Shown piece after piece: positions 7,854 to 57,993 of a stretch of DNA of 64,000 bases (its first letter is position 1; each line of letters opens with the position of its first letter). The position numbers and the translations under genes are program-made. The stretch covers positions 1-64,000 of the forward strand of contig CAJVPI010000041.1 of NCBI GenBank assembly GCA_910592345.1, in the 5' to 3' direction. The DNA is from Paraglomus brasilianum. Lineage: Eukaryota. The notes beneath the pieces are model-generated. The model had not been told where the DNA came from. It made no database searches and saw only the letters and a program-made list of their open reading frames with translations.

Positions 7854-10800
7854 ATGGCAGAGGCTATAGTAAGTTAATTCACACTTTATGAACAGTTGCA
7901 ACATTTATTAGAACAGTACGAAACAATGTTTCATTATTATTCTGAAGTGAGAAACAGAATTCAAGGGTAATAGTCTACTGATTGTTACTAACTAATATGT
8001 TATTCCTACGTTTATTTACGTCAGAACAATGGCGAATTGTCATCCTCGAAAACGAGAAACAAAGGTAAAGGCAAACAAATCGAAGACAACGAGATTGATG
8101 ATATAACTCAATCGGACGAAAACCTGAGTGCAATCCAATTGAGGGAGGAGGTGATCAAATGCTTAGAATCAATTGCCAACAACAGAAAGCATCACTTTAT
8201 CAGATTGCATACCTTGTTGTTGACAACCAAGGATAAATTGGATGAAGATCAATTGGAGAATGTATTGAAAACAATAGGAACAGCAAATATTTCATATACA
8301 GCACATAAGGTAACAACTGGTATGGAGTTGGAGCTACATCTCAGAACATATGTGTTGGCATTGGAAGCATGGGGCAGGAGACCACTCATAATGGCAAAGG
8401 AACTCCGTGAGTCTTTGTATGGACATCTTGCTACTTTGAATGATTTTCATCAACGGCATACTGAAGCATTAAAGAATGGCCTGAAGAAAAACTTTAAATC
8501 TGGGTATACTCCATACAATGACCAAAGAACTGCATATGACTTATATTCTGGTTTAGAGAAAGGTGTCAATTGCCAGAATTACAATATTGATTTTTTGCTG
8601 ATACATCTTCGGGATACTCTTCATGCAATGCCTGATGATGAACCAGTCTTATTTAAGATTATAAGACCACTAAAAGCTGTGTTCACTAGCATGGTTGGAA
8701 TTTTACCTGGCATGGCTAATATTATGGCAAATATTCAAACGCCATTTGATAACAATAATTTCCTTGAGACATATAATAATATTCATCAGACACTAAACCT
8801 CAAGTTTCCTATCACCTATTGGTACAAGGATTGGAGATATTTATACAGCACATATCAAGCATTTGTTGAATGGTCAGATATACCAATCAATGAGGATTTA
8901 GTTTTCAAAGGTGAATTGATGATTATTAAAGATTTGTGGAGATTTGGAGATCAGGAATGGGCCAAAGCTACTGTAAAATCAGAGTCAGAGATGGATACTT
9001 TCAAGTCTGACTTAAAGCATACACTGGTCCATATTGGTGGTTATGCCCCTGTATCATACCCATATTCTTTATTGTATGGTATACTAGAAATTACTCAAAA
9101 ACTCATATTATCTACAAAAAATACTAGTACTTTGGCTCACTGCTATTATCTTGCAGTATTGACACTTGACCTTGTATTAACAGAAAATATTCAATTTAAA
9201 GCAATGGAAGTCTTGACAGCACTCTATAAAAAGGATCCAGATACCTTTTCAGTTGTCCAAGTAGATTTATGTCAGCATACCAAACATGTTACAGAATTGG
9301 ATGGAGCTAATAAAAGCAGGCTTCAAGATATGATTGAATACATTAATGTAAAATATAAATTTATTAAGCCTGCATTAGAAACATCAATAATGCCAATACA
9401 AAACACAGTGTTAGAACAGAATCCTGAGGAATTGCTTGATTCCAATCCAGATGATTTGTTGATTTTGGATATGGTGGCAGACCATCTCACATGTCCCTTT
9501 ACACAGAAAGTTACAGATGATTTTAGAATATTGCCATGTGGGCACAAGATCAGCTACTCAGCTTTAGGGAAATTTATGATATTCAATTATTCTTCATTAA
9601 AATGTTTTTACTGCAACAAAAAAATCAGGATCCAAGATACCAAATCATTAGAGAGTTCACCCATCTATAAAGCATTGTATGAAAAGTTTGTTGAAACTGG
9701 ACACATTACACCAAAAGACAACACATCAGACTTTACAACAGCTGTAGAAAACCAGGATGCCAGTGATTCTGAGGAATATTCTATCATGAAAACAAAGTTT
9801 TTATATTTACTGAAAATGAAACCTAAGAAAACTCTTCTGCAAAGAATTAGAAGACCAAAAGGACAACACCCCACATACAGACAAGGCAAGAAAGCTCTCA
9901 ATAATGGAAGATACAAAGATGCAATAATATGGTTGGAAAGAGCATGTGAACATTATCCTAATAGTTCCACCATTCAGTGTGATCTTGCTTATGCATATAT
10001 GCTAAATTCAGACTACAAAAAGTGTCATAATTATATAAATGAAACAATCAAGAATAATCCTAAAAATGCCAAAGCTTGGGCAATACTTGGAAACAATTAT
10101 ATGTTGCAATCTGAATATAGACAGTCCCTTAAAAATCTTAAACAATCATTGGAGATTGAACCAAATAATGCATTTGCATTGGGAGTAAGGGGTACTGTCT
10201 ATTGCCTGCTTAAACAATATGATAATGCATTGGTTGATCTCAATAAATCATTGGAGATTGAACCAAATAATGCATTTGCATTGAGAGGAAGAGGAGAAGT
10301 CTATTTTATGCTTGATCAATACAACAAAGCATTGGTTGATCTCAATAAATCATTGGATATTGAACCAAGCGACACATATGCATTGAGAGTAAGGGGAAAA
10401 GTCTATTGTAGGCTTGATCAATATGACAAAGCATTGGTTGATCTCAATAAATCGTTGGAGATTGAACCAAACGACGCATTTGCATTAAGCGGAAGGGGAA
10501 ATGTCTATCGCATGCTTAAACAATATGACAATGCATTGGTTGATTTCAATAAATCGTTGGAGATTGAACCAAATGACGCATTTGCATTGAGAGGAAGGGG
10601 AGAAGTCTATCGCATGCTTGATCAATATGACAATGCATTGGTTGATTTCAATAAATTGTTGGAGATTGAACCAAACAACGCATTTGCGTTGAATAGAAAG
10701 GTAGAAGTCTATCGCATGCTTGAATATGGAATTAAATTGGTTGATTTCAGTAAATCATTGGAGATTGAACCAAACGACGCATCTGCATTGAGAGGAAGGG

Positions 10801-31588: not shown

Positions 31589-32060
31589 CAGTGAACCCTC
31601 TCTAATATCCACCCCGTTAATATCCACCTCTCTCTATTAGCAACAGTGGTTACAGAACGGATTTCCCCATATATAAATTCCCCCGCATATATCAATTTGG
31701 ATATCATACCCCGTTGATATCCCTATCAACACATATCAGATTTTATTCCTAATTAAATGTACCTCGCTGATATCAACATCAATATAAATTAGTATTTTAA
31801 AATTTAAAGTACTAAAGTATAAACATACTCCACACGTCTAATTCTGATAGTTGTAATGAAGGCAGCGACATTGAAATCGAAAAAATTTCTCATTCTACGG
31901 CATTGGAACAATGCGGATTACTTCTGCAGTATGTAGAACAACAAGACCCCGCCAAATTTGTAGAAGAGCAAGACATGCCAAGATTGCAAAGTCTGTTGCG
32001 ACGCATTCAGTCGAATATATACGAGGCGAGTCAACAAAAAAAGTTAACAGATTTTTTCGT
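31589..32060 (+). mobile_element. pogo/Tigger-like remnant (left TIR plus transposase C-terminal tail, right TIR not found)
   Basis: TA|CAGTGAACCCTCTCTAATATCCAC with ATATCC/ATATCA subrepeats. The reading KISHSTALEQCGLLLQYVEQQD...KKLTDFF is a typical pogo tail. Confidence 0.65.
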
Positions 32061-32400
32061 CCCCAATTCATAAGAGTGAACAAATTGGTTTAGTTTAATG
32101 GAGAAAGAAATAAAGAGATTTTTATTATAAATAAAGTTTAAGATTTAATTGGAGACATAAGTATCGTATATAATATCATTAATATGACGTCATTATTTAA
32201 AACCCTACTTTACATAAAATCCGCAAAATTGTGGTAACGAAAAACGAACCAATTTTATATTATTTAGATGGCGAATTCGCACCTACACGTGGGTTTGTAC
32301 TTGAGGAACTCATGCACGTGAATATTGATATGCTTCCCAGAGTATATTGGAAGAAAATACTCGTTCCAGGTCTGTTAATTTCGTTCGTATTATTAATAAA

Positions 32401-32871
32401 ATGGCTAAAGCCATTGCGTATGCTGAGAAGCGTGGTGGGAAATGTCTTGGTAAAACTAATCAAATAAATGGTTTCGATGTATATCTCTGGTCTTGCGAAA
32501 AAGGACTCCATCAATGGGAAGCACCTTATAAGATCCAGAAGCGGAAATTCGAGTGGTGTCCAATTTGTTTCCACCATACCGATGAGAGACGCTGTAGATA
32601 TATTTTCGAAGATTTGATGGGCAAAAAATTCCCGCCATGTGCACCAAAGTTCTTAGGTGGGTTACGTTTAGATGGTTATAACGAAGAGCTACAATTAGCG
32701 TTCGAATTTAACGGCTCACACCATTATTACCGCAGTGATTTGTATCACCGGAAAAACGGTGAGATCGACCTAGAGTCTCAAAAAAATCGTGATCAAAAAA
32801 AGCGAAAATTGTGCAAACAAAAAGGCATAAATCTTATTGAAATTCCGTATACCTGCGATCTTCTACCCTAA
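32401..32871 (+). CDS. Zn-ribbon plus PD-(D/E)XK/Vsr-like endonuclease of NCLDV type
   Basis: [21 protein letters not shown], then [43 protein letters not shown]. The stop may be premature, since the frame continues IHNALLEKGYL. Confidence 0.75.
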
Positions 32872-33048
32872 ATCCACAATGCATTATTAGAAAAGGGTTA
32901 TTTACCAAATATAAATACCGAATAACTTTCTGTCAAAGATAATAACGTTTATTATTTGGCCGTACATCAGTGGTACCACAAAAAAATGTTACGTAATAAG
33001 CTTCATCCATCTCATGCAGGCCATACGGCAAAACTTGATCGATGCGAA

Positions 33049-33783
33049 ATGTTTGTTTATCACATTGACGAGTGCAAAAATGCAGAAAGATTTAACTCAT
33101 TAAATTCGACGCCCCAATAGCCATTTAATGTTTTGGTCAGCGGACGAACTAAATCAGGAAAAACAAATATGATTGTCAATCTTTTACTTGGGGATAAGAT
33201 GTATCGAATGTTTAACGGGAAAAAAGGTGGAACACGCTATATAAAAAATGACGATCTACTGTTAATTGGACATCATCTTAAGGAACCCAAATATCGCCAT
33301 TTAAGGGATTGTTACCAAATCATTGCAAATAGTCCAAAGCCATATCGCGAAAATGTTACGTTCCGATCGATGAAGCCCGACAAAATACCAAAGATTGACG
33401 AATTTACTCCTGAAAGAGGGACGTTGGTTATATTCGAAGATTTATGTAGTGAGCCTAAAAAGGTGCAAGAAAAAATTATCCCTTACTTTACTGAAGGACG
33501 TCACTCAAACATCAGTTCAATCTACGTAACGCAAAGCTTTTTCGATTGTCCGAAATTAATAAGAAAAAATTTAGATTATATTGTGCTCTTTAACGGAGCT
33601 GGTACGTATGATGAATTGGTTGATATAGTTAGGCGGTATACAAAAAAATGGCGTAACGCTGTTGATATAATCGATAAGAATTTGCAAGGTCGGCAGTTCA
33701 TTGTAATTGACTTGACTAGAGCGAAAGAGGATCCTCTCTATATTCGTTTGGGTTGGGACACGCCTTTGAGATTAGATAAATAA
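33049..33783 (+). pseudogene. A32-like (FtsK/HerA) viral DNA packaging ATPase with one in-frame stop
   Basis: ATG 33049 is in frame, with TAG at 33118-33120 (PQ*PF). Walker A GRTKSGKT, Walker B LVIFED, and signature [35 protein letters not shown]. Confidence 0.88.
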
Positions 33784-33862: not shown

Positions 33863-34520
33863 TTACTCAGCCATACGGCCAAGCAAGAGCATTTGAGATC
33901 GTTGGTGACGTATGTCTTCACGAATAGTCCATAAAAGTTTGTAATGTTCAGCTAATTGCTTGACCATTAAACCATTGGGACGATACATGAATTCTATCCA
34001 TTTATGTTGGATAAGGGCGCATGCTCGCATCTTTTTCCCGACTTCCCTTGCCCGTTTAAGTTTGCTAATAGCATTTGACATCCATAATTCGTAATAACGC
34101 AATCCATAAGTATCGTCGAATGTACGATCAAATTTGGGTTTTTGTGTAATTTTCAAAAAATCTTAGTTCGCAATATTTATTACCAATACATGAAGTTTTC
34201 CAATGTTTCTCCATATATGCTTTGACATACGTGTATTTTCCAGTATATACTAGCTTGTCACAAGAGAAACAGATGACTATACCTATTGTTGGAGAGTATG
34301 AATTACTGTCTGGAAATCGTATCAACGTTCTGGCTTCAAGAAACTTTTTGTTATTAATATTCATAAAATTATTATTTCTGAAATATGTTAAGCTTTCCCA
34401 GATCCGTTCTTTCCACTCACCGGGAGTTTCTCCAATATGTACTTGTGGCATCCTGCAATATTCGGTCCATTCATCATCAGTGCATTTAGAATCGCGCAAA
34501 TCCTGAATAGTAACAATTTT
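33863..34520 (-). pseudogene. Frameshifted hypothetical gene of the element (Cys-containing)
   Basis: Two overlapping minus-strand ORFs (34128-34499 and 33863-34156) with ICFSC...HWKTSC. Intronless. Confidence 0.5.
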
Positions 34521-35260
34521 ATTATTTATATGACCAGTTATGTGCTACAAAGATATGCAATTTAATGGAATAAAGCGTAGTAGTGTTTCAGATGTACTAA
34601 TCATACACATTATAAATATTGGATTCAATTTTAATCGAATTGGCTCATCCAGGGTTTCATATTTTTTGGGGGTGTCTTAGCGAAACCAAATTTAACATTC
34701 AGCATGTATTGTGACCTCAATAATAAAAAGTTTTCTTATTAGTACGCGTTTTCTTTTTAAGACGTCAGCTGGGGGTTATTTCTCCACCATTCATCGCTTT
34801 CAGCTGGGCCATTAAAAATATATCTTGTTCAGATCTAGAAGAGCCTCACATAACTCGACAAACTTCTCGGAATTATTTTTGAGCAACCACAATTGCAACC
34901 TATTTCCAAGAAACGCATTGCTTTTTCGTATTCGGTTGAACCGTTATAATTATAATCTTTCATATACGGGTACTCCTATATATAATTTTTATTATTAACA
35001 ACTTATTACACTGTTCCTACTTTCTTGGAATCGAACTAATATAATAACGATAAGGCGCAAATAATATGGCACTTCATTTGCCACAATGTTCGAGTAGATT
35101 TATCGTTATATTTCCTAAAATACTAAAGTCAAGAAATTCAATCACTGATTAAGACTCTTGAAGATGTTAAAAATTTAATTTTCTGTTCATGAGCATAACT
35201 AGTCATTTGCTAAACCCAATACCTGCTGAAGAAAGTCAAAAGCGAACACTCCACTTGCCA

Positions 35261-37794
35261 TCACGTTAGTGATGAAATACTAGACTCGTAAACAAGGGGA
35301 TCTTGGGCCACAATTTGTTCCTCAGACCAATAATCGCCTGTCTCCTCATTTTCGAACCTCCACGCTTCATCAAATGGTGAAATAAAGGCGCCCAAAAGGT
35401 CTGCTAACTCTTCTTTGACAGTGGGATCAAGAAATTTGAAGAAATTCAATCCAAAGTGTGCAAAAGGGTGTTGTTGTTCTTCTTCAAGTTTTTGGCGTTT
35501 GGACTTGCGGATTGGTGGAACCTCTCTGAGTTGTCCCTGGAATCCGAGTTGCCAATATAAAGTGATGTATTGCTCTCCATGATCTTTGAGATCTGATTTT
35601 CGAAAAACGAACCGTGAAGTTAATTTGGATGAACCAGACTCTGGATAGCTCTTGTCTGCATTCCGGTCACTTGATGCATAGTTCTTCACTTGAATGAGGA
35701 TATAGGAGTATCGGTCTTCAGATAGTTTTACAGGGATCATAATGTCTGCACCGGGGTTGTTGCGCTTAAGAATTACAGCACATCGTCGTTGATAATATTC
35801 TTTCAAAGAACATGTTTTAGGGGCATATGTTATGGGAATGAAGTGTGTAAAAGCCACAGTTGCATCTACAAAATGTTGTAGGTCATCAACTGCAGCAGGA
35901 TCCAATAATTCCATTAGCCGTTTGACTGTGATGACGGTTGATTTCCATTCTTTCTTTTCCTGTATAGACCTCATTGCAAGAATTAGGATAATTCGTGCCA
36001 CCACTTCTCCACGAGGGCCTGCATCCACGAACCCTTTTTTCAGCATCTCATTAAACTTCTGCAGAACACAAACCAACGTATCATTATTAGTAATAGCAGA
36101 TAATGCTGCTTCTGCTAATAAAGGTTCCGAGGGATAACGAACTAACAAGCGCTCCCTGTCACGTGATACTGCAACACACGTTGCCATATGCAATGCCACA
36201 AGATCAGAAGCAATTTTTGACTGCGGTGAAATATCCAAACAAACAAGTACTGACAAAATGGCAATACTGGACATCTTTTTTTTGCTGTCTTTGAAAGCAT
36301 TTACTCCACCAAAGAGTTTAATCTGCAATAGTGATACCAGTCCTCTAAGGGCTACTTCAGTTGAAGAACTTGTCCGTTTGACATCAAAATAGCTGTAAAT
36401 TAACGGTCTCCCCAGCCTTGCCAATTGGACAATTTGACCTTCTTCAGACGTTCCTGCTGGATCTTCTGTTTTGCCTTCAAATATATCCATCGTCGTAAGT
36501 CTAATAAAAGGATGAAATAATTCAAATCCTAGGTCGTCCTTTCTTGCAGATGGGTCTGCTGATGAGGGTGGTGTAAAGTTAGAAATTTTGCTAAAAGTGT
36601 CCAAAAAGAGGACGAAGAATCCATTCCACCCGATATGTCTCATAGCTCTTCTAAGCAATCGAAATTGAGTACAACCATCATCTTGCACAGAATCAATGAG
36701 GGATCGTGCTTCATCAATACATAAGAGAATTTTGATTTGATTGTCAGAATTATCTGTGAACAGGAATTTATCCACATCGAGGTTCGCATCCTTCCGGTCA
36801 ACTTTCTTCCAGTCTTTACTGGCTTCCGATACCTCTTTCCAGAATTTATTGCACCATTCGTAATCCAGTTGCCATTTCCAGAGGTTCTCAGCTGATTCGT
36901 TGAGGGAATATCCATGCAGTTTTTTGATAGCGTGCCAAAGAATGAACATAAACCGCCATTCCTCTCCACCTGAGATCTGTCCTAGACTATCAAAGATCTC
37001 TGGTGCATAAGGCGTAGCAGGCGGATATCCTGTACTTCGCCTGGGGCGTAAACACACATATAAAGTGGGAATTTTCATTGCAATCTGCTCAATAAGGCGA
37101 GTTTTTCCATAGCCAGAACTCTGAAAGAGCGTTCCATAAGGTAAGTGATTTTTCTTATTAGCAAACCAATACGCGTGTTTCTTATTGATGTAGTCCCGAA
37201 ATCGTTCGACTATTTTCAATGGATCCTGGTATGGTATTTTGAAAGCTTCCACAAAAGCCTGTTTTTGCTGGTGCAGCACAGCCGCAGTGGTTTTGTCGTT
37301 TTGAGTATCCTTTGCTAAAGAATGCATAGGAGGAGGAAAAACACCAATTAGTCAATGTTGCAATGGTAGTTTGATCTCAATGCTTGTAATGCATTTGAAC
37401 TACTCTCCCTCTGTTGACCCCATGGCTACTCCACAAACCCCCGTTGCTCCTCTATTAACCCATAATGTCTCTTGTCCCCTCGAGTTCTCTTTGAATGAGT
37501 TTATTATTATGTATAACCTAGCTCTGCTACGATTCTGCTCTGTCCCAACTAATAACGCCCAACTGCCTCTCTCTCTTCTTGCAATATAGCACAAAACCAG
37601 TAACAGTATTCAAACTCTTCTCCCCATTGCTCCTCTATCCTCTCAATAAACGTGCGTGGTTTTGCTTGCTTACCGTGTTTTTTAAGATATTCCTCATATT
37701 CTTCTTCTGCTTTTGCTAAGGTGGCGTTGGGATGTTTACGACTGTATTGCCATAAGAACTCCTCTTTCCTCATTACTCTTGCCGTTGGGTCCAT
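35261..37794 (-). CDS. Crinkler-type P-loop NTPase plus PD-(D/E)XK nuclease protein (688-aa exon intact, 5' exon(s) degenerate)
   Basis: Walker A QSSGYGKTRL, Walker B LLCIDEAR, FLDTFSKISNF, YPSEPLLAEAA, GPRGEVVARIIL and nuclease-like NPGADIMIPV...ILIQVKN. Probable intron at about 37316-37403, with upstream ORF 37549-37794. Confidence 0.8.
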
Positions 37795-39067: not shown

Positions 39068-39834
39068 CTGCAATTTTAATATAGTTGTATGAGTATTCGC
39101 TAAGTTATACCCAGACGTTGCGCAGCGCATAGCGATGTATCGAGTGTTTACTTTGAGAACGCACGGAAGTGATAGTTACCTTATTTTTTGCGGTGCCGCT
39201 AAATAATAATCGGGTTGCGATCTTTTAGTGTGATGCGTGAAGTAAAAAAATACAGTCTGATAGATTGTTAATCGTTGGTCAGGATGTTTGATTTATTGAG
39301 CCAACGCTTTGATAATGTTTTTTCTTACCCAAATCTCCGCCGTACGGCAGCGTTTTATACATCAAAGCTTGTTATTAACAAACCATAGCATTGGTTCTTC
39401 AGATTTCGTTCTAAATCGAAGTAATAAATTACCAGTATAACAAGTTCATACAGCTATAACAAATAATAACAGCGATTTTATATTTATGAATCTACGTTAT
39501 ATCAACTATCCGTGGCATTGGTCTTCTACGTCTCGAAGTAATAAATTATTGACGATCAATATGTTATTAATAGCCTGTGGCACCACTCTGAAATACATCT
39601 GCTCCTCAGAGATTATTTGCGTGCGTAATGATAAGATTGTCCACACTAACAATCACAAAAAACCATCGAGGTGATAATATCTCACCGAGAGAAATCTGAA
39701 ATTTTTTACCCGATTCCTGTTTAGTGATATGGAATACGGTTTTATCAGTTTCGGTCATTGTAAATGTTAAATTATTTTATTAATACGAATTTAAAAATGC
39801 AGAATTAAATATATTGTTATAATAAAACATCACA

Positions 39835-40218
39835 ATGATAACTTTATTCTGCGAAATCAATAAAGTACCAGTAACAGCTATATTAGATTCCGGTGCTAAT
39901 TGTAATATCATAGGCGAGAGTATAGCAAAAATAGTAGGCTTGAAAATTGATAATACCTCTGATACGGAAATATACAGTTCCATTAGCGAGCTCAATATAT
40001 TGGGAATAATTCGTGCAATGGAAATTTTGGTCCTGTCTCAAGATCAGAAATGGGAGCAAGTAGAAGTTAGTGATGTTTTCGTTACCAATAAACCCGAACT
40101 TGAATCTGTACTGATATTGGGTCAGCCATGGTTCCAGGAAAATGCAATGAAACTGGACTTCCCAAATAAAACTCTTACGTTGCTCAATGGAACTAGTTGC
40201 GAGGTTAAGTGTAATTGA
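39835..40218 (+). CDS. Stand-alone retropepsin-like aspartic protease
   Basis: AILDSGANCNII catalytic motif and C-terminal LILGQPWF. No gag, RT or integrase nearby. Confidence 0.85.
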   Translation: MITLFCEINKVPVTAILDSGANCNIIGESIAKIVGLKIDNTSDTEIYSSISELNILGIIRAMEILVLSQDQKWEQVEVSDVFVTNKPELESVLILGQPWFQENAMKLDFPNKTLTLLNGTSCEVKCN

Positions 40219-40647: not shown

Positions 40648-41716
40648 TTAGTCTTTATCATAGATTCGAAATAGTCTTGCTTGCTCTGGGGATTGATTTT
40701 TTCTCCGATAATTCACCACAACATAATTTTGTACTGGTGAGGTGTGATTGTCAGGATTGTGGTGTAAAGCTTCTCCAGCGATTGTCATAGCATGAGCTAA
40801 ATTCTTTGCCCCATGTACCACCACAGCATATACAGCCCCTATTTTACGTAAATGGCGAGGAATTAAATTATAACCTTTTAAGAATCTATTAAACCATTTG
40901 GCCCCTGGCTTACCTGGGTTACCCATTTGGCCAGAAGATATAGCGTTCTGTATCCAGGTTAGCAATTCTTTGGCTCGTTCTTGATTCTTTTCCATAGATT
41001 TAAATTTTCTATGAATATCTGGCTGACCCCTGTTCTTCGCATAACCCGTTACACCGGCATTTGTAATACGTAAAGTAGTAACTTCAGCGGGACGCATACA
41101 GAGCATCAGCAAGGGCTTGTGAGTCAGGCAGTGTCTTAATGTTATATTTATTTAACCGATTCTAATGTAAAATGATCTGGATAGTCGATTTTCTCAAAAT
41201 CCTCAGCAATTTTTCGTCGACTTGTCTGAATTTTGTTAGACTTATCTGTAATCTCAAAGATTTTTGTCGCTTCAACTATATTATATGGAGCATTAAGATT
41301 TCGTAATTCTTTCCGAAGCCGGGAAAGCCTAGAGGACCCAGCAACTTCATTCAAAGCCGACTTAGCTAACTTTATTGCTTCGGCTTTTACATCCTTTTCA
41401 CTAAGTTTATCTTGTAAAATCCGTTGTGCTATCTCTTTGATGGTTTCCTCCGATTTTACCAAGGCCTTGCCTAGGCCGTACGGCAGAGTTACGATATTTA
41501 TATCTTTTCGCTGGCTTTTTCTCTGAGTAGGAATTAATATGCTTACCTGTTCCTCACTGAATTTGAAACCATCTCGAAGACGTCTTCGTGCTTGATTTCG
41601 CTTTCTATCATCTGTAAGCTCTTTGAGCAATTCAGAAGTATACTTACTGACTCAGATACACTCATTCCTGGGTTAAGATTGTATTTTCCAACGATCGTTG
41701 TTGCAATAGCTGACAT
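40648..41716 (-). pseudogene. Tyrosine recombinase, protelomerase (telomere resolvase)-like, frameshifted
   Basis: Joined from ORFs 41543-41731, 41148-41630 and 40648-41112. The catalytic order is R (CMRPAE), K (TGYAKNR), R (RHLRKIG), H (EALHH), Y (PVQNY), after a helical N-terminal region. Confidence 0.7.
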
Positions 41717-42017
41717 TTCGATTATATTCACTTTCTTAGGTTATGTCCTCTTTGCTAGGTTATATACTATGCAAAATATTCTTTCAATTCGAAAATAATT
41801 ATCGGTGTTTCTTCTACAGCAAAAATGCCAAATGTCGCGACCATTTATCGTTTGAATATCTTTAATCAGAAGAAAAACAACTAAAGTTCGGATAATTAAT
41901 TTGGGCGTACATATACTATGTATTTTCCGGATGTCACCCAAGCTTTGTCTAAATTATTACGGATTTTAAGCATAATTGAAATTAAGAAAGAAAAATATAA
42001 ACATAAAATAATAATAT

Positions 42018-42263
42018 ATGGATCGCGTCACCTGTCCGCATATAAAGAGGGATGGTTCTATTTGTGGGAAAAGTTGCTGACGAGTCACAGGGTGTTCGTT
42101 GCACTGGGCTTTACATGATAGGAATATAGCGAAATTTCCTTGTGGAATCTGTGGGAAACTAACAATTTCTGGAACGGGGTATTGCCCTAAACATGCGAAG
42201 AGGGTTTATTTTCGAAATTGGTATGAGAGACAAAAGGCACAGAGAATAGAAGCTGATACGTAA
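42018..42263 (+). pseudogene. Small double Zn-finger protein (not in ORF track)
   Basis: MDRVTCPHI/EDGSICGKSC*RVTGCSLHW...FPCGICGKLTISGTGYCPKH...IEADT*, with one frameshift and one stop. Confidence 0.6.
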
Positions 42264-42423: not shown

Positions 42424-45400
42424 TTAAACGATATCGAATAAGACCTGGGTATTCTGTGAGATACACGTAGAATTAGGAGGCGGTTCTAATTCATCAGGTG
42501 AGAGTTTACTATAAGAATACCGCCAATCTTCTCCATTCTCCCAATCTTCGCCCGTTTGATATGGTGGTAATTTGGGAGCACCCTCATTGTCAAATGCTCC
42601 AACTAAATGGTAATGCGTATTTTTATTATTAGTAGTTTTAAACTTTATCCCATAGAATGCAGAAAGTGCTGAATTTAATAAACCAAGTTTTGCTTTATCC
42701 GATTTTAAGCCAGATTTTTTAGCACTACGAGATGGGTCTGTATTATCAAAAACCCGAGCCATTTTTGGTACTAAATTTTGGAGGTATTGTATCGATTCTG
42801 GTGAGTTTAAGCACATTTTAACGTCATTAACTCTTTATATCTATTTCGATCGTCAATATCTTTAACCGGTGTACAAGTCTTTATTAATTCCAGACAGATT
42901 CGATGTTTTTCAGTTCTAGTAACGGTTGTGAGTCTATCATTTCTATAATCTTCACGGGTAATTGCCTCAACTGCCGTCTCATTGTTAGTGCCGGCATCTC
43001 GTAATTTCCGGAGAGCTCTAAACCAGCACATATGATTATAATTTCCAAACTCCGAGATGAATTCTTCAGTCAAAGACTCAGGTGTTATATCATAGCAATT
43101 TACAATATGGTGTCGGTCTAATGCTCGCATTTCTTCTAAAGTTTTCTTTGGTTTATTTTCTAGATGCTCAGCTGTTTCGCGGTTAATAATATTTGCATTT
43201 GCAATATCCGAAATTTCCTCTGCTTTAATAACCGAAGAATAACCCTTTACTGTTGCAGTTAATGTCATGGTATTATCTTCAGGTTTGGGAGTTGGCTCTA
43301 TTACTGAAACTATCATACCCGCCTTTCGGAGAAAATCAACCATTCTCCAACCAAATAGACGTTGAGAGCGGAATTTTTCCAACATATATGCCACCCATAA
43401 TCGGATAGTTGGGACATCTTTATTTCGAATAATAGTATCTATATTTGGAAATATTCCTCTATTCTGTAGCTCTTGAGGGAGACATCCGCGCTTTGCTTCC
43501 GTTAACCATTGAAACAACTCCTCTTCTGTAGTTGGGGCTTTAGATGTTCTTTGTTGAATATAGCATAAATAATCTTTAATGCAACGCATGCGGAATAACA
43601 TCTGATTAGTCCCAGCATTTGTTTCTATATAACTATTAAAGAGACAGAATGCACGCTCAAACTTAGGATTGGTGCAAGAAACTCCTATTTTTAATGTGCT
43701 AGTATATGCAACCAGATCAATATTTTTCCATGCCTTTTCTACATCTCTGAAATCTCGAGTCTTTTCTATGGGATCGGACTTACCATGATATTCTTTTATA
43801 CGTAAATTAGGGAACTCCTCTTTCAGACTACGCACAATACCTTGAATATTTCTCCTCTCATGGCAGATAAGTGATGCGCTTTTTCGCTCCTCAAAAGGTA
43901 GTGATGATATTTCCTTAGCCCAATCCCAGAGCTCTATTAATACAGTTTCTTTATCGGAAGCAAGACGGAATGTTTTACCTTTTTGGGGCTGGTATGTGTT
44001 GTGGATAACTGAATATTTCTTATTCGGTCGAAGTCCTTTAATCCATTCAATATTAAGGTCAGTGAGATCATTATCTAGTACAATAACCCTCTCTGCCTGT
44101 GTTATTAATTCTGAGAAATTAGCAAGAGATATAGATAAACCACTTAACCGAGTTTGTGTTTGCGCAATAACCGATACAATCTCATCCAATGCTAGAATAT
44201 AAGGATTTGGAATACATTTACATTTTTTAGTCCCGCTAACCCCATTATCACATTTACATTTATTAGTAATGCGATGTAAACTTTCTACCTGGCACACTAC
44301 CCTTTGATGATCTCTGAGATTTATAGGTCCATCAATATCGCAATACGATTTGAGATTGAGCCTAGTGGTGACGGCATCTGAATAAGTATGTCGAGTTGAT
44401 ACTACGAGTAAGCTTGTATTTTCAGGAATATTTAAATTTTCCATGGCATATGTTTTCCCAGTTTCCCAAGGCGATCCTATATAAATATCGTTTTCTTTAG
44501 ATAGAGGTTTCACATATCTTTCTTCATATTTTTCTGATGCGGTAAGGGATTCATCGTATTTAACCCAAGATAGCATTTTTAGAAAGGCCTTTGGGAATCC
44601 CGAGTCTTTTGTTTTATGAGAGGTAGGTGGTAAAATATTATTTTTTATTTTTTTGTTGGATTTTTTCTGCAATAGATGGGTCATTGAAAATTTCCCCTGA
44701 TTCGTCACGATTTTGCTGGAAACATTTCACAATGAATGAACCATTACCATATGCACGGCCAAACCACCGCTGATCCTTGTCGTGTGTGCGATTACATAGT
44801 GGGCATTCTAGATATGTTTTTCGATTAAAATATACGAAATGTTGGGAATCCTTTTCTTCGATATCCCAACCACCAAGATAATCAGGATACTTCTGCAAAA
44901 CTAGATTCGCGTATTTTTTTAACGCATCTTGACCCACGATTATTTTTTTCTGATTATTTATTTTTTCTGTACTAAGTATACGGGGTCTTACTTCATATCT
45001 CGAACTAAAAGGTGGTTGAACTCTGGCGTCATTGAGATCATTCCACCCATTATCTAGTGAGAATTGAAGTATGCGCTTTACGCGGTCTTTTTTCGCAGAA
45101 CCGATGATGCGAAGATTAAAATTTCGACCAGGTAATCCCTTATCAATAAACTTACCATATTTTTCTCCCGTTAATTTATATACCAATTCTGTAAATTCTT
45201 TAAGCTCCTGATAGTCAATAAGGAGAGCTGGAGCGTATAGAAGGTGGTAACTACATTTGTTAGAATCGGAGGATGAAGCAATTACCAGTCCTTTGAGAAT
45301 TTCCTCCCAACTACAGTCAAGGATTCGATATAATGCTCTTATAAATGAACAACAAATACGAATGAAAACGTCATCAGCAGTTACAGTATCAGCTCGCATT

Positions 45401-46008
45401 TTCTCACTAGAGGCATCAATATCAATCACAGGTCTCAAAGGTCGTTGTCCGTTAATACATTCATGTACTCCAGGAACCCCATATACTTCAGAAATATTAT
45501 CTACAACTGAATATTTATAATAACCCCTCTGTTCTACTTGGATGACTAATCTATCAACCAATTCTTCTCGTGTGTACGCATCTAGCAGACTAATTCCTTC
45601 TTTTGCTCCGTAATTAGGTAAGAGATAATCCCATAAATGTATATCTTCTAATGATCCTTTATTGTTCGACATATCTCTGACAGGTGAAGAGACAATTTTG
45701 CGGATTCTATTTAGTAGATCCATTTGAGTGAATTTATTATCGAACTTTTCTTGCCTTTGAGTATATATAACTCCCACTCGATCTGTGGAATTTGTCGAAT
45801 TAGACATTTTCTCTTCTACTTTAGGAGGTTGGGAAATTGGAGACTTAATAGTACTAGTCTCGGTATATGACTCATATTCAGAGCCATAATCACTGCAATT
45901 TTCCGATTCACATTCGGATATATTATCACTATATTTATCTGAGTCGCTTGAATAGTCATCGGTTTCCCCGCCGTCGTACCGCTCGAGTTGTGCGTTGCGT
46001 GCTGTCAT
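42424..46008 (-). pseudogene. Fused AEP primase, Zn ribbon and UL9-like origin-binding SF2 helicase (~1190 aa, two frameshifts)
   Basis: AEP motifs RPVIDID, KCSYHL and FIDKGL..NFNLRIIGSAK. Zn ribbon CPLCNRTH..KCF. Helicase motifs SPWETGKT, VSTRHTY, CQVESLHRI, LDEIVS, YTSTLKIGVS and QMLFRMR. Breaks at about 44645 and 42820. Confidence 0.88.
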
Positions 46009-46150
46009 TTTTTTATTGGTATGTATCAATCTTTGTTCGATTATATTATTACAATATAGTTTGGAAAAGTTTAAATATCGATATCAAAAAAATGCATCGA
46101 GTTTTAATGAGATAAATGAAGAGAATCGCGATCTTGATTAGTGAATACTT

Positions 46151-47335
46151 TGGGTATATAAGTTCGGTAATATATATGGAAGTTATATACCCATTTTGAT
46201 AATATGTTTTTGGGTAGATAAGTTCATACTTTGATTATATGTGTTCGGGGTATATAAGTTCAGTAATATTATATAAGAAAAATGGGAGTTATATACCCGT
46301 TTCGATATATGCTTTCAGGGTATGTGATCGGGTGTAGACCCAAAGGGTCATTGCTTTGCAATAGTAATATGCAGAATATGTATAAGAAAAATGGCAACAC
46401 GCTACAATTTTTTCGGGTCGGGGTAGATATCTACCCACCTTAATAATATGTCTTCGAGTTATAAGTTCAGTAATATTATATAAGAAAAAACGGAATTATA
46501 TACCCAGTTGATAGTATGTCGTCGGGTATATGCTCAGAGTGTATAAGTTCAGTAGTATTATACCATTTGACAACATGTTTCTGGGTATATTTTGGATATA
46601 TTTTCGGGGTGTATAACTTCAGTAATATTATATAATAATTATGGGAGTTATATACCCGCCTTCCTATATAATTAGTCAAAGTTAACCCACTTTTTTACTA
46701 CGTATGTTCTCAGGACATATTTCTGGTATCAAAAATTCTGGCAATCGAAATCGACATACTTTAATATAACGTACGCGATAACATTTTTTTAATAGCATAG
46801 CCCGATAGCATATATATGATAGCATTATCGATAGCATTTATGTGATATACTCTACGGAGTAGGATGCTTGCATCTAGCATACATATTTGGTGGCATACCC
46901 GATAGTAGGAATATAGCATACCCGATAGCAATAGGTAGGTAACATTGGGCCAGCAAATGATGATGCATAACTGAATGCATCGTTGGTATTTTTTTTGCTG
47001 ATGTGGCCCAGTGATGGGAATTGGCCACGAACACCAAGCCAGCATACAAATATCGCGGATCGGAATATTATATAACAATATCCTTCGCCGATATGTTTTC
47101 GGGTATTTAACTTCAGAAATATTATATAATAATTATGGAAGAAGAATACCCTTTGCTGATATGCTTGGGGTATTAGTCTGTATTCGGAGCATTACGATCG
47201 GGTATTCAGCGCCGTACGACTCGGAAATATTATATAATAAAACCCTTCGCTGATATGTTTTCCGGATATGTCGTTATAAGATAGGGTATATAACTTCAGA
47301 AATATTATATATAAATTATGGAAGTTATATACCCT
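46151..47335. repeat. Array of palindromic units GGGTATATAA(C/G)TTC-[AT-rich spacer]-G(A/G)AGTTATATACCC
   Basis: Copies at about 46151-46193, 46248-46298, 46458-46505, 46607-46657, 47101-47151 and 47283-47335 (perfect 15-bp arms, 23-nt spacer), plus half sites. Confidence 0.9.
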
Positions 47336-47589
47336 CCTATTTAAACCGATTCAAGTATTAATCTTTCCTCTGGAAAGCGCTTATAGTCGAGTATAATTTA
47401 TTTTTATTTTTTTAGCTCTAGCTAGCTCAGCGGTACCGCCAAATAACGGCGGTGTAAACACAATTCTATCGTTACTTGTTTTAATATTTGCTTCGCAAAT
47501 CGACCCAACCACGCTCTAGAGATCAAATAATATGACAAAAATATCGTTATTATCCTCGGCTGACTAGCTTCGGTTTTCTTCTCGGCCGG

Positions 47590-47845
47590 TAATGCCTCGG
47601 CTGAATGACGACGCAACCACAGACGCATCGTCACTCGAACAATGACGCAAACGCGGCTGACTTTTCCAACTAACACCTCAGCTGACATCCTCGATGGGTA
47701 CAAAGGCAAATGACGATGCAAACACGATCTTGTCGTCACTCGAATAACGACGCAAATGCAAACACATCGTCACTCCATAACTGTTTACTTCTTCAGCTAA
47801 CACCTCAGTTGACATCCTCGGCAAATGACGATGCAAATGCAAACT
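47590..47845. repeat. Interleaved short direct repeats
   Basis: TAACACCTCAGYTGACATCCTCG x2, GGCAAATGACGATGCAAA x2 and TCGTCACTC x3. Confidence 0.8.
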
Positions 47846-47866
47846 CATGGGTGGGAGCGGGTATAT

Positions 47867-47958
47867 CCTAACTGAGAGGTCATAACCTAGTGTCATAACC
47901 TAACTGAGATGTCATAACCTAGACTAAGTGGTCATAATATAATTATATTATGACCACT
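47867..47958. repeat. Subterminal GTCATAA repeats ending in a perfect 32-bp palindrome (candidate hairpin telomere)
   Basis: GTCATAACCT at 47879, 47892 and 47911. AGTGGTCATAATATAA|TTATATTATGACCACT at 47927-47958. Confidence 0.95.
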
Positions 47959-48511
47959 GTTGTTAACTGCTCATTTAATTCAGCACTGCTCAGATTTGGG
48001 GGAAATAATTGTTCACAATCTTCAGAATTGTCATTCTCACTATCACTTTCAAAAATGATAAGGTCTATTTCAGCAACATTCTTAGTCTCTGCATCTCCAT
48101 GCTGCTTCTCCTTCCCTTTGTTTTTGATACCTGAAGATGATTGTTGTCCAATCTCCTAGTAATATTGAGTTGTACGAGCATTGAAAAAGTTGTAAGAGAA
48201 TTTTTCCACATTGAATAATTAAACAACTTAAAAAGGAGCTTATTGAATATATAATTAAAGCTTACCCAGCTATCTGCTGGCAATGAATACTTATGGTCCA
48301 TGTCAAATACAAAAGTTTTTATTGATCTGACTTCTCAATACTACTAACTGTATTAGTTTTCTGAAGAAATTCAATGCATGATAATAAGCAATGAAATTCG
48401 CTTGTTTATTGATTTTATAGGATCTTTATTGACAATTCGCTTGTGTGATGTGATACAATTGGAGTTGAAATTAACCAATCACTAGTCACTGATAACACAT
48501 TCTGTATACGT

Positions 48512-48790
48512 ATGACGAATACAACAGTTTCAACTTATCTAAAAGACAGGGGGGAGAAGAGCGTAAATACCTTGGAATCCCAATGTGAATCTTTTGTTTA
48601 TGCCAGAGTCTCAAGCTCAAAACAGAAAGAAGATCTTGAAAGACAGAAACAATACCTCCTCTCGCAGTTTACAAACCACTGCCTTATTTCAGACATCGCA
48701 CCAGTATCAATTTCAACTAGTTTCTACCAATCGACACTTGGTTGTGAGTAGTAAAACCTGTTTGAAGGTCACTAATGGTCGTTTGTATTT
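48512..48790 (+). pseudogene. IS607-type serine recombinase (TnpA) fragment
   Basis: VYARVSSSKQKEDLERQKQYL...ISDIA, then a frameshifted LVVSSK. No TnpB/Fanzor is visible downstream. Confidence 0.8.
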
Positions 48791-51395
48791 AACTAAGAGT
48801 AGAGAAATCACAGCTTCGTTCGAAAATAGCTAAATCCGAAGGTAAACAATTAATTGTTCTGCCTGTATTAATGAGAGTAGAAAGTAGAGATGATAGTGAT
48901 TTATTTGTTGTTGAAAGAAATTTATGTATGAAGTGTAATCTTTCCAGATAGTCCAAAGAGAGGCAGACATAAGAAGTCGAGCTGTGAAGTGAGTGAATGA
49001 GACGATGATGAATATTAATATACGTTTATATAAACTTTGATAAACGAAAGCGTAAAAGCAATTTACATGAATTTTGAACGTGGACGGATTATTGGTCTGG
49101 AAAGTCCCATGAAGTTATGGCTCGTATTCTAAAAGTTTCAAAAAGGTTACATATTAAGAGCTCTTTATGTAGTAAGTACTCTTATTAGTTTACCATCCCT
49201 ATGAATGGACAAGCTGATGAGGTAGTACTTATGGAAGATTTATTTATTGTTTGATAAGTTATACGGCGAGGTATAAATAGGATAAATAGCACAATTACTG
49301 AAAAGTCCGTTAATCACTGCGATTAACATTTAGTCAAATTACCTTCCCACAAGCTTCCACTAACAATACAATTACTGATATAGTAGCTCCTACATTGCAT
49401 ACAGTGACTGCAACAATTAGTTGTCGTTATTCGCTCTTGATTTATTATTCTCGTGACATCCGAATAAGTATTCGGGTAAGATTTACACAGTGAACCTGGA
49501 TATAACTAAGTGGTCTGTCCGCCCTTTTAGCAAGTTTCCTCTTTATTAGAAAGTTCTACACAGTCAAATTCACTTTAACGAAGACATTCATTCCACGGTT
49601 TGCTTTGTTAATCTGAAAAGTCAAACTCGTATGTCAACCAATAAAATTACAGAGTTCGAGTTGCGATTTACCAAAATGAGAGATCGAAGTTATTATTATC
49701 TTTGTAACAAGTAACCAGGTTACGTCTCTCCATTGACTGAAACTACAAAATAGCATTGTCAGTTGAAGAGGGAGGACAATTAATCAGCTGACCTTGAGAT
49801 ACACAACCTTCTGATAGTTAGCCTGCGAGTGAAGTCGTAAATCTCTTTACCTAAATATTGTTTTTGGGAGTTCTTGCTGACGATTCCTGGATTACAATAA
49901 ATCGAGTTCTAATTTTTGTTTTTCTATTAGATGGGTTTCTATTCTAATGCAAGGAACCGGCCGAAAGTAATTGACAGTGGCGATAGAAAGAATAGTCTAA
50001 ACTGTTTTCGGTAATAAGTAGTAATTTGTTAGTGTAGCTGAGCACGCACGCGCATTCAGACTTCTATTGCAACTCTACGTTGAGGCTATGGCTATTCACA
50101 GTTAGGCAAGTTCTGTAAATAGCAGCGAAGGTTATCGATTCTCATTAATAATCATAAAGTCGCCATCCGTCGAATTCGGTACCCAATCGATAGGTAAGTT
50201 ATTCATTATGTTCATTCGATAATTCGTGTATTATAAGACTTTATTTCGAATTCTTCCATTAATCGGAATAATCAGTATCAGAACATTGAAATATTCGAAT
50301 GTATCGAACATGTAGAAAAGGAAAATAATTATTGTTGCACCAAGAATTATTCTTCTATTAAAAACACCGTACATTCGTAAGGCAATATGTGGAATTCGAT
50401 GAGACGATGAGACGCGTCTGATTTTGTAATCACACGCTACGGAGTAATATCAGGATAAAGATAGCGTTCCTTTTGGCTTTAATATGACGGTAAACTATTT
50501 AAATGGATCATAAAATAAATAAGCTCTAGTGTGGATAGATAACAATGCTTCGAGTGCCCGAATATAATTGACATCAAATGAATAATATAAATAAAACAGA
50601 TAACTCACCCTATGGCTGGCCTTTACCCTAGCACTGTCATTCTCACCAAGTTCTTTCTAACACTCACTATCGTTTCTTCGTTTGTTAAAGTGTTATTTGT
50701 ATAATTTTGGTATACTTATTCATACCACTACTTCATTTAGCAAGAATTCGGTTATTGATTGGCTGGCTTAGTAAAATATTACCATAATTTCCCTTGTTAA
50801 TATATTACGTACGACAGTTCATACGTCAGCAAATAAAAAATAAATAACACTCATTTAGTGGTAGAACAGAAAGTAGCTTTTCGCCATATTAATATACACT
50901 AAGTACATATTTTAAATCTTTCAGCCAATCGCCGATGCCGAGAATGTCCATTAGAGTTTATCCACCTGTACTAGGTTTATTTATATTCAAAAGACTGCGG
51001 ACATGTCACTTAAATATTCGTACAACTTGGCAAAACAATGGATCAAAGATCCTCAATATACAGAGACTGCAAGTCATTGCCTACTTTATTGATACTTACA
51101 TGACTCTCGACATCTGCCTGATATGTGACACTTCCTACATTACGTTGAAAGGATGTAATGCATTTTATTGAGATTGAAAACAGAACCAATAAGTTACGTG
51201 TCAAGGAAATTAACCGACTAATATGCTACAAAGACTAATGAAATGGATTTCATGACTTCCATCTTCAGTCTAACCCTTCTTTCTCTGAAACACTCACTTT
51301 CGATTCAAGCTTATGAATAGGAGTATCCAAGTTATATTGAATCATATAGACTCTCCCTTTGTTATTCGATCATCTTGAACTCTTAATAATGTCTT

Positions 51396-56260: not shown

Positions 56261-57075
56261 TGTGTGAATAGGTTTGGTGCAAAAAAAATTATCGCTCTAG
56301 AGAATAACGTGTGCTATTTTAATAAGCAGTTAAATTGTATTCTTGAAAACCATAGCTTAATTTTAACCTCGTGGTATTTGTACGTGCGTGTGATCTATAC
56401 TATTGTTGCATATTAAAAAATAGTTCGGATTCCACAATAGTTTTACAGGATTTGCCATAATTATTCTGCAATACGTTCTCTCCACAATGACAATGTTTGA
56501 GGATATAACGATAATATATCAACAGAAAAAAATTATTGGCTCTAGATAAGTTAAATAGATATGTTAATTTGGCTCAAACATGCATAAATGTAATGCGAGT
56601 TTCTGAGCATTTAATTGGACAGTAAATTCACTCCACATTTTTTCTTTGTATCTTAATACATGCTTAAAGCTTTTTACTAATTTCCCTTGCCTTCCGATTG
56701 CATTGCATTTCTGTAACTTGTAACGATGTAATGCAAATTTATTATCGAATTTATAGCCAAGAAATGGAACTTTTGATTCACCGCAGTATTTATTACCGGT
56801 ACATGAAAATTTTCATGGTCATAATTCCTATATATTTTAATTTATTTCTTTGTCCAGTATAAACTAATTGATCACGAGAGAAACAGAGATTTCAGGGTAT
56901 ATGAGTCGCCATCCGGAAATCGTGTTAATTTCCCTTTAAGATATCTTTTACACCGATTAGTAAAGATAGTTTTTTTCGAAGTACGTTAAATTAACGAGCC
57001 CAGATTTGTGACATCTAACAATATTCAGGTGTACAGGCCTCATTATCATATGTTTTTTCAGCGTGTCACATACTA

Positions 57076-57993
57076 CGGTCAAGACTGGATATAACGATAC
57101 ACCCGTTAGGCATTTTCATCGTTATAGCGATAACATGATAGTTACGAAAAAAAAATCGTTATACAAGATATTATCTATCTTGTTTGATATTCGGTTTTAT
57201 TGAAAAAAAGATTCAGTGATACTACAACCTACATTCTGATAACAAAACCGTCTAGCATTGACTGTTTCTTATTATTGACGTGGTGCGTTAGCACTTGTTT
57301 TCGTAAGGAGCGTACTGTTGGTACAGTACTTGCATCGCAATTAAAACCTGCGGGTGGATGAACGAGAAAATCGAACACAGTTCTTTAAAACAGTCTCCTT
57401 TCCCTGAGAAGGTTTGGGCTTACTAGAGAGTTTAACACAACATCCTTTTTTTTTGTGCAAAGGTCAAACGTGTTCTCAAACGTTTTGTTGGATATTGGGT
57501 GTTTTCGCTGGTAGCTCGTTTATTGAGTAACATTTGTTTAGTATTAGACATTGAAAATCGGGGAAATGAATATTTATTATATGTAATACTAATACAGTCA
57601 ACCCGCTCTATAGTCACGCTGTCGGGAACAATGCAACTTTTGTTGAAAATGTGCTTATAAAGAGGTTGTGATTATATAGAGGGTTTTTCCTATAAGTTCA
57701 ATAGTAATTGGTTCTCAAACATGGGGTGCTTATAAAGAGGTTTTTATATGATGTGCTTATAGAGGGGGTGACTATAAAGAGGGTTGACTGTACTCGAAAT
57801 TCGTACAGTTTTGATTGGTCATGGGTGGATGTCACACAAAAATATCGGTATAAAAATATATTGCTACAATAGTTGGTACATCGTATACGTATCGTTATAC
57901 GTAATAATAATAACGAGGTTTTAACAATGACAAATTTCATCGTTAGATCCAGTTATCGTTATATACAGATATCGTTATATCCAGTCTTGACTG
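57076..57993 (-). mobile_element. Non-autonomous pogo/Tigger element with 24-bp TIRs
   Basis: TA|CGGTCAAGACTGGATATAACGATA ... TATCGTTATATCCAGTCTTGACTG|TA. Remnant KRLRTRLTFAQK is CENP-B-like N-terminal HTH. Confidence 0.85.
57595..57790 (+). mobile_element. Complete 196-bp MITE nested in the previous element
   Basis: TA|CAGTCAACCC...GGGTTGACTG|TA, with a second copy at 1081-1265. Confidence 0.92.

Follow-up and report, generated by a model that had tools for sequence, protein, structure and literature searches.

Introduction

Protelomerases, or telomere resolvases, are known from a few bacteria, from phages and from algal giant viruses. These enzymes cut a palindrome at positions 6 bp apart and seal the halves as hairpins, and the residues of TelA that act in refolding sit in its interdomain linker helix (PMC3558466), while TelK and ResT require a stirrup/C-terminal domain for resolution (PMC11317167); these and all later papers are cited from the available part of their text. 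Phaeovirus elements carry an integrase together with a protelomerase, with reads that fold back at the palindrome (PMC13236599), and this system is the closest precedent for the locus described here. Mavericks, Polintons and Polinton-like elements (PLVs) have been noted in Glomus/Rhizophagus (bioRxiv 10.64898/2026.06.19.733378; PMC11296320; PMC8502044), and the tyrosine recombinase in the end modules of PLVs was read as an integrase, the rve integrase being thought to decay (PMC11296320). Glomhoppers consist of a single DUF3504 ORF whose product has an R-H-R-Y tetrad (PMC13465315). Work on Rhizophagus Maverick-like ATPases and primase-helicases, on an asfarvirus-like region and on DUF3504 Glomhoppers does not mention a resolvase in the available part of its text (PMC8502044, PMC13465315, PMC10640383, PMC11296320, PMC7017919, bioRxiv 10.64898/2026.06.19.733378). 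Our literature search, whose coverage excluded most subscription journals, Repbase and supplements, found no report of a protelomerase in fungi or in Polinton-like/Maverick elements.

The locus lies in a 64,000-nt stretch of Paraglomus brasilianum DNA (contig CAJVPI010000041.1, positions 1 to 64,000), called here the window. It is a copy of a family that, in models of intact homologues, shares with TelA, TelK, TelN and ResT (PF16684) a helical bundle, a long linker helix and a catalytic domain, as well as an R-K-(K/R/Y)xxR-H-Y set that aligns to TelN. Unlike known protelomerases, its members are only 10-14% identical to the solved resolvases, have no Pfam match and reside in a eukaryotic host. 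They differ from TelN in spacing (R-K 19 versus 25, H-Y 12 versus 9) and in having RH instead of GH, from TelK and ResT in lacking a stirrup or C-terminal domain, and from the bacterial and phage enzymes in having, in fungal members, a further helical domain (about 65 aa) at the N-terminus. As in N15 (56 bp) and PY54 (42 bp), a perfect palindrome lies near the gene; here it is 32 bp long and a presumed substrate, and, unlike in protelomerase systems, it is 6 kb from the gene and apparently terminal.

Like the phaeovirus elements and EhV86, the carrier is a eukaryotic integrating DNA element with a separate integrase, a protelomerase-type enzyme and a palindromic site; in contrast to these giant viruses, it is small, Maverick-like and fungal, its integrase is of the DDE/rve type and not a tyrosine recombinase, its site looks terminal instead of internal, and its protein forms a separate family (PMC13236599). 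It resembles Mavericks, Polintons and PLVs in its rve integrase, its A32 ATPase and its end module of primase-helicase and tyrosine recombinase (PMC11296320; PMC8502044), but differs in the protelomerase fold of the recombinase, in an UL9-like helicase and an aspartic protease, and in that no pPolB, capsid protein or cysteine protease was detected among the ORFs scanned, the left part of the element being missing here. A tyrosine recombinase with many decayed copies in Glomeromycota is likewise found in Glomhopper/CryptonA, DIRS and Starship elements (PMC13465315); unlike Glomhoppers, however, the present family sits in a multigene virus-like element, has no His at the first position of HxxR and showed no DUF3504 match among the families listed.

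A dead copy of a conserved recombinase gene

The gene in question was first noticed in a sequence-only reading, as a protelomerase-like tyrosine recombinase broken by about three small indels:

40648..41716, minus strand: pseudogene of a protelomerase-fold tyrosine recombinase, ~356 codons with three frameshifts (fold from intact homologues; HHalign)

All the motifs quoted in that reading were located on the minus strand, and its spacings (R-K 19, R-H 29 and H-Y 12) were confirmed for residues R20, K39, R102, H131 and Y143 of the C-terminal frame. The span measures 1069 nt, that is 356 codons plus 1 nt. By tblastn with intact homologues and by frame mapping, we placed three frame changes near 41651, 41151-41158 and 41099-41112. 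A short-read contig of run X1, possibly from the same sample as the window, matched 40970-41802 with 0 differences and 0 gaps, so the frame breaks are not merely a consensus error. The window copy is therefore a pseudogene, no longer functional, of a family that is itself under purifying selection.

Of 307 candidates from a search with the C-terminal frame as query, limited to longer proteins, 94 were homologues, with a best E of 5e-87, which is no chance match. All of the 72 matches that had an organism name came from arbuscular mycorrhizal fungi (AMF; Glomeromycotina), including Gigaspora, Diversispora, Entrophospora, Rhizophagus, Paraglomus, Geosiphon and others. The enzymes of the family are about 280-430 aa long. 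For all computable pairs among 11 intact ORFs (from 80 metagenome loci), dN/dS ranged from 0.11 to 0.34, indicating that the family is under purifying selection. The catalytic residues were conserved in an alignment (A2) of 51 of the 94 matches, picked for length and diversity: R210 in 45, K229 in 51, R292 in 50, H321 in 47 and Y333 in 47 of the 51 sequences. The set R, K, (K/H/Y)xxR, H, Y of protelomerases is thus present in the family. The residue directly before the catalytic His is Arg in 47 of the 51 aligned homologues and His in the window copy.

At the first position of HxxR, the His that is a hallmark of the Lambda-Int/Xer/Cre group was found in 0 of the 51 homologues (K 26, R 9, S 11, F 3, Y 1, gap 1). 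The suggestion that a basic residue replaces this His therefore held for 35 of them, but it is not diagnostic: seven protelomerases have K, K, K, R, H, Y and K in this column, which is described as Tyr in TelA and ResT and as Lys in topoisomerase IB (PMC3558466). A basic residue as in topoisomerase IB would also suit a protein of the element that performs no net resolution, either a site-specific relaxase resembling topoisomerase IB or a regulator that binds DNA. This explanation appears very improbable to us, as purifying selection acts on the complete catalytic set and, in the structure comparison below, topoisomerase IB scored only Z 5.7-6.4.

More distant relatives were obtained by a profile search of 1.84 billion representatives, with 645 matches at E <= 0.001. 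Among the best 150 of the 645, we picked 11 divergent relatives, with 29-47% identity to one of the distant homologues, P0140; the 10 that were checked are single-member clusters from ENA, Logan, JGI or NCBI. The residues R, K and R were kept in these 11 relatives, and H and Y in all except one truncated member, and the first helical domain was absent from most of them. The distant environmental relatives P0140, P0175 and P0199 lie on contigs of 14-22 kb, the source of which is perhaps free eukaryotic DNA viruses. No relative of the resolvase was confirmed in GTDB genomes, nor any relative of the resolvase or of the element's primase in IMG/VR. Overall, this is apparently an undescribed family that is widespread in mycorrhizal fungi.

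Fold and profile comparisons

Structures were compared by VIA-align against 48,161 solved chains, with 50 matches listed for two homologue models. The model of P0020, an intact homologue of the same length as the window copy (pLDDT 85.5), matched TelA (Z 13.8, rmsd 6.2, 262 aligned; second chain 13.4), TelK (12.2) and ResT (8.9), and these four chains were the only ones of the 48,161 to reach Z 8. Lower scores were obtained for lambda Int (7.0), Cre (6.4) and variola topoisomerase (5.7), and for SroF (7.0) and MrpR (6.2), two phage regulators of similar fold, whose place further down the list is a point for a regulator. The model of P0140 gave TelA (Z 13.0, rmsd 4.6, 251 aligned; second chain 12.6), TelK (12.4, rmsd 4.4, 241 aligned) and ResT (9.1), with 7.7 as the best match beyond the resolvases. 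Across both models, integrases and Cre reached at most Z 7.7 versus 12-14 for TelA and TelK, so the Lambda-Int/Xer/Cre group is not the best match, and no Crypton-related or Flp structure was present among the 50 matches listed. In both models the fold is thus nearer to telomere resolvases than to integrases and Cre, which supports the closeness to telomere resolvases proposed from the sequence. Of the outcomes named beforehand as counting against that proposal, neither a best match to another fold type in these two models nor a lack of conserved catalytic residues was seen, with one exception: Foldseek placed Cre first by E-value (0.017, no match being significant), while its highest TM-score was that of TelA (0.44 versus at most 0.36).

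This Foldseek ranking would fit another account, in which a protelomerase-derived enzyme acts by ordinary strand exchange, as integrase/excisionase or dimer resolvase, and the palindrome and repeats described below are its att or res site. ResT, moreover, is able to fuse telomeres (PMC4499125). With both models clearly nearer to telomere resolvases, we regard strand exchange as unlikely; the gene content of the element and its terminus, treated below, also bear on it.

Other searches for the fold pointed in the same general direction as VIA-align. By ESM Atlas features, PF16684 clusters accounted for 19 of the 30 matches, at 0.95, and the first Phage_integrase appeared at rank 18; by ESM Atlas structure, the best outside match was ResT/TelK (TM 0.56 versus at most 0.47 for others). 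In BFVD, the EhV86 resolvase was at the top for the first model (E 0.05), and results for the second were mixed, the EhV86 resolvase coming third, behind a Syn5 integrase in second place. Proteins of EhV86 and FirrV-1-B51 were among the top viral or atlas matches.

HHalign of 22 family members against seven protelomerases gave E 6.7e-5 and a probability of 64%, pairing R210/K229/R289/R292 with R275/K300/K380/R383 of TelN. The conserved H and Y fall outside the aligned block, and their equivalence to those of protelomerases is by order and spacing. The long helix 148-168 and the IDYP motif after it aligned with a matching segment of TelN, which we take to be the interdomain linker helix. HHalign against single sequences gave weak results throughout (E 0.61 for Cre, 0.26 for Int and 0.009-0.45 for single protelomerases); Cre and Int are thus not a like-for-like control for the profile result.

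At the PF16684 cut-off, hmmscan found no match in the 51 members or in 10 distant relatives. Among 25 of 36 families listed (E up to 1), no DUF3504, DUF3435 or Phage_integrase profile was found either, although the sensitivity of hmmscan is limited, because it misses PF16684 as well. Sequence searches of PDB sequences, Pfam, PHROGs and GenBank phages gave no meaningful name for the family. Taken as a whole, we consider kinship of the family with telomere resolvases very probable.

The element that carries the gene

The pseudogene is part of a degenerate virus-like tract between host genes, which end at about 30600 on the left and resume with a WD40 gene at about 51400 on the right. About 16 kb of the element survive, with the following features:

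32219..32904, plus strand: remnant of an rve integrase C-terminus, then a fused nuclease-like domain (E 3e-4 to P0314; E 2e-60 to P0238); integrase core absent here
33121..33783, plus strand: A32-like packaging ATPase (PF04665, E 1.5e-7, above cut-off)
33863..34544, minus strand: conserved gene of the element, homologous to L043:7217-7885, here in a broken copy
39826..40218, plus strand: retroviral-type aspartic protease (PF13975, PF09668, E 5e-6), convergent with the resolvase gene
42020..42263, plus strand: small cysteine-rich (zinc-finger-like) gene, syntenic in relatives
42807..44726, minus strand: UL9-like origin-binding SF2 helicase (PF02399, E 6e-16)
44638..46083, minus strand: AEP primase-like ORF (AEP_C962R / UL52-like; ESM Atlas 0.98)
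46142..47346, no strand: AT-rich repeats of 36-74 bp upstream of the primase (repeat scan), similar to DNA 5' of the primase in L002; candidate replication origin

The A32 ATPase and the rve integrase, the latter as a remnant, are hallmarks of Mavericks, Polintons and PLVs, and by its gene content the carrier of the resolvase gene is a Maverick/Polinton-like element. The rve assignment is based on PF00665 in 14 of 101 homologues and on UniRef names; Pfam made no rve call in the 11 fungal integrase-like proteins scanned. The primase call reflects an ESM Atlas family present on 16-37% of cluster members, with no Pfam match. Two overlapping loci, L002 and L043, together show the same gene order as the window, with different cargo. 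Helicase and primase are out of frame with each other here, and in L002 the helicase is fused to the C-terminal part of the primase. The aspartic protease adjoins the resolvase gene in other loci too, and a neighbouring element gene was found on 16 of 80 loci, most of which are short.

The order of repeat end, primase-helicase and tyrosine recombinase is also that of PLV end modules (PMC11296320), and the rve core is absent from the window copy; both points would favour strand exchange by the tyrosine enzyme. Against this, P0238 is a 553-aa integrase-nuclease ORF, 99% identical (over the region searched) to that of the syntenic L043. A DDE integrase on board means that the tyrosine enzyme is not needed for insertion. 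The integrase role that the sequence-only reading had kept as a possibility thus survives as an unlikely alternative, made less likely by the element's own rve integrase and by its candidate target palindrome.

Some further sequences were observed in and around the tract. An intact 696-aa P-loop ORF (35261-37351, minus strand), presumably Crinkler-like, lies inside the element, has no Pfam match and is absent from the syntenic loci; it is cargo or a later insertion. Transposon remnants, which we assume to be Tc1/pogo-like, were seen at 31589-32207 and at 49487; the former lies directly against the element's truncated left side, with a loose end at 32207. A short repeat of very high copy occupies 34700-34880 (summed depth about 27,000 in X1). 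Beyond the WD40 host gene, a decayed homologue of L043:7217 (56550-56950, minus strand) is a second element-gene trace, left by another insertion. Two inverted copies of one MITE-like sequence (1071-1250 and 57596-57790) lie about 56 kb apart, as judged by eye, and a 42-bp hairpin at 868-909 (18-bp perfect arms, 6-nt loop), which overlaps a ATAATCTA-type motif, may represent either a MITE feature or the terminus of a related element.

A palindrome at the apparent right end

The following features lie upstream of the resolvase gene and at the right side of the element:

41718..41764, minus strand: ATAACCT direct repeats with a 19-bp period, directly upstream of the resolvase start codon; putative operator/binding sites
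47604..47848, no strand: multicopy direct repeats in subterminal position, richer in GC, which other copies show joined to the palindrome
47863..47922, plus strand: four copies of the ATAACCT repeat (spacings 19, 13, 19), with a variant 20 bp on, within the left arm of the palindrome
47927..47958, no strand: perfect palindrome of 32 bp with its axis at 47942/47943, longer than any other in the window; candidate telomere-resolution site at the apparent right end

The palindrome is about 6 kb upstream of the resolvase gene, and its arm of 16 compares with at most 12 in 100 shuffles. Among relatives, 30 of 34 distinct upstream regions of the resolvase gene carry the ATAACCT motif, versus 17 of 372 control windows; of the six exact ATAACCTA sites that the window contains, five adjoin the start of the resolvase gene or the palindrome. 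Shared by the gene's upstream region and the palindrome, the repeat ties the palindrome to the resolvase gene. It also occurs reversed, directly before another gene in L043, and may therefore be a promoter motif; operator-like repeats kept before the gene would be expected of a regulator as well. In one subfamily (L006, L008, L011 and similar), the upstream motif is a short inverted repeat with a 7-bp spacer, 30-60 bp upstream.

When contigs of four runs were mapped on 47380-48480, summed contig depth rose several-fold over 47898-47971, with loose ends, in all four runs (contigs only; depth is not copy number, and palindromes disturb mapping). At the peak it was about 1400 in X1, versus 340 and 320 in the flanks, and about 340 versus 46 and 87 in X17, which is from another organism. 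In other copies, the subterminal repeats were joined directly to the palindrome (47722-47900, 47765-47915 and 47772-47926). In at least three X17 contigs the match ended at 47958 and the flanks beyond were dissimilar (agreement 0.66); in at least two X1 contigs it ended at 47946. Copies of the right-flank DNA in X1 and X21 ran on without the palindrome. With flanks that change after 47958, and a right flank whose copies elsewhere lack the palindrome, we read 47958/47959 as apparently the right junction of the element. The terminus so defined starts with 5'-AG, a trait of Polintons.

These joints also count against strand exchange, since both palindrome arms seem to be element-derived and the flanks change outside them, whereas attL and attR are hybrids at the core. 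They bear as well on the proposal that the enzyme is a true hairpin resolvase whose site is internal, as telRL of N15 and that of phaeovirus elements, or lies elsewhere, 47927-47958 then being no end, or belonging to another repeat. The sites known so far do lie inside the circular or integrated form (N15 annotation; PMC13236599), and the left end is missing here. None of the fetched loci reached the right end or held a near-copy of the palindrome, so gene and palindrome are linked on one molecule by the window only. With new flanks starting directly after 47958, a right flank free of the palindrome elsewhere, and the repeat motif tying the palindrome to the gene, we judge a site elsewhere to be rather improbable.

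Searches for a left terminus, a second palindrome and a target duplication found none of them, the left part of the element being missing here, and no strand-change joint was present among the joints listed for the contigs of the four runs. The exact palindrome core was absent from IMG/VR; ten looser matches on viral and prokaryote contigs lacked any element gene and were set aside as chance. An 18-bp perfect palindrome with a CGCGCG centre (L002 9597-9614; L043 4008-4025) was also rejected, being one element seen twice where a rough estimate expects about one; its centre equals the central 6 bp of the TelK site, probably by chance. Likewise, the right flank could not be established as a paralogue of the TPR gene at 7992 (E 0.75; an 18-mer with 2 mismatches was reached by 13 of 100 shuffles). 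To the right of the terminus, a serine-resolvase fragment (48449-48751, plus strand; PF00239, E 2e-4) was observed, presumably IS607-like.

Proposed mechanism

Alongside the fold kinship, catalytic residues, purifying selection, synteny, palindrome and shared repeat reported above, a catalytic activity can be predicted. An intact enzyme would, we think with moderate confidence, cut the 32-bp palindrome near 47942 and reseal its halves as covalently closed hairpins. The free form of the element would be linear DNA with hairpin ends, resolved by this enzyme, and we find such a form reasonably likely. An internal origin served by a primase-helicase, together with no protein-primed polymerase, calls for either a circle or hairpin ends. 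Copying would start from the internal origin with the element's own primase and origin-binding helicase, probably with a host polymerase. At the replicated end junctions, a resolvase dimer would make staggered 3'-phosphotyrosine cuts about the axis, followed by hairpin refolding. The probable binding sites of the enzyme are the 19-bp repeats at the element end, and the enzyme would repress its own gene.

Insertion would be carried out by the rve integrase and not by the resolvase. A hairpin nicked 16 nt beyond its tip would unroll and remain as a terminal palindrome such as the one seen; more speculatively, cutting of terminal palindromes could release the integrated copy. That the terminal palindrome, with its outer arm derived from the element, is a relic of opened-hairpin integration and still a substrate for release is a speculative idea that we put forward tentatively. 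A complete cycle of hairpin-ended, self-replicating elements in mycorrhizal fungi, in which a DDE integrase opens the tips and the element's own protelomerase excises it via terminal palindromes, is similarly possible but doubtful.

Significance

If this cycle is true, transposition would proceed with a telomere resolvase in the role of excisionase and without a protein-primed polymerase, and the elements would possibly be a fungal DNA virus lineage with free-living relatives in other eukaryotes. The enzyme is compact and a candidate site has been named, which makes the prediction testable at once; if active, a eukaryote-adapted maker of closed-ended linear DNA would be a useful tool. An active family would also show how integrating elements without pPolB solve end replication, would explain what hundreds of unannotated AMF genes do, and would help to class the large unclassified repeat fraction.
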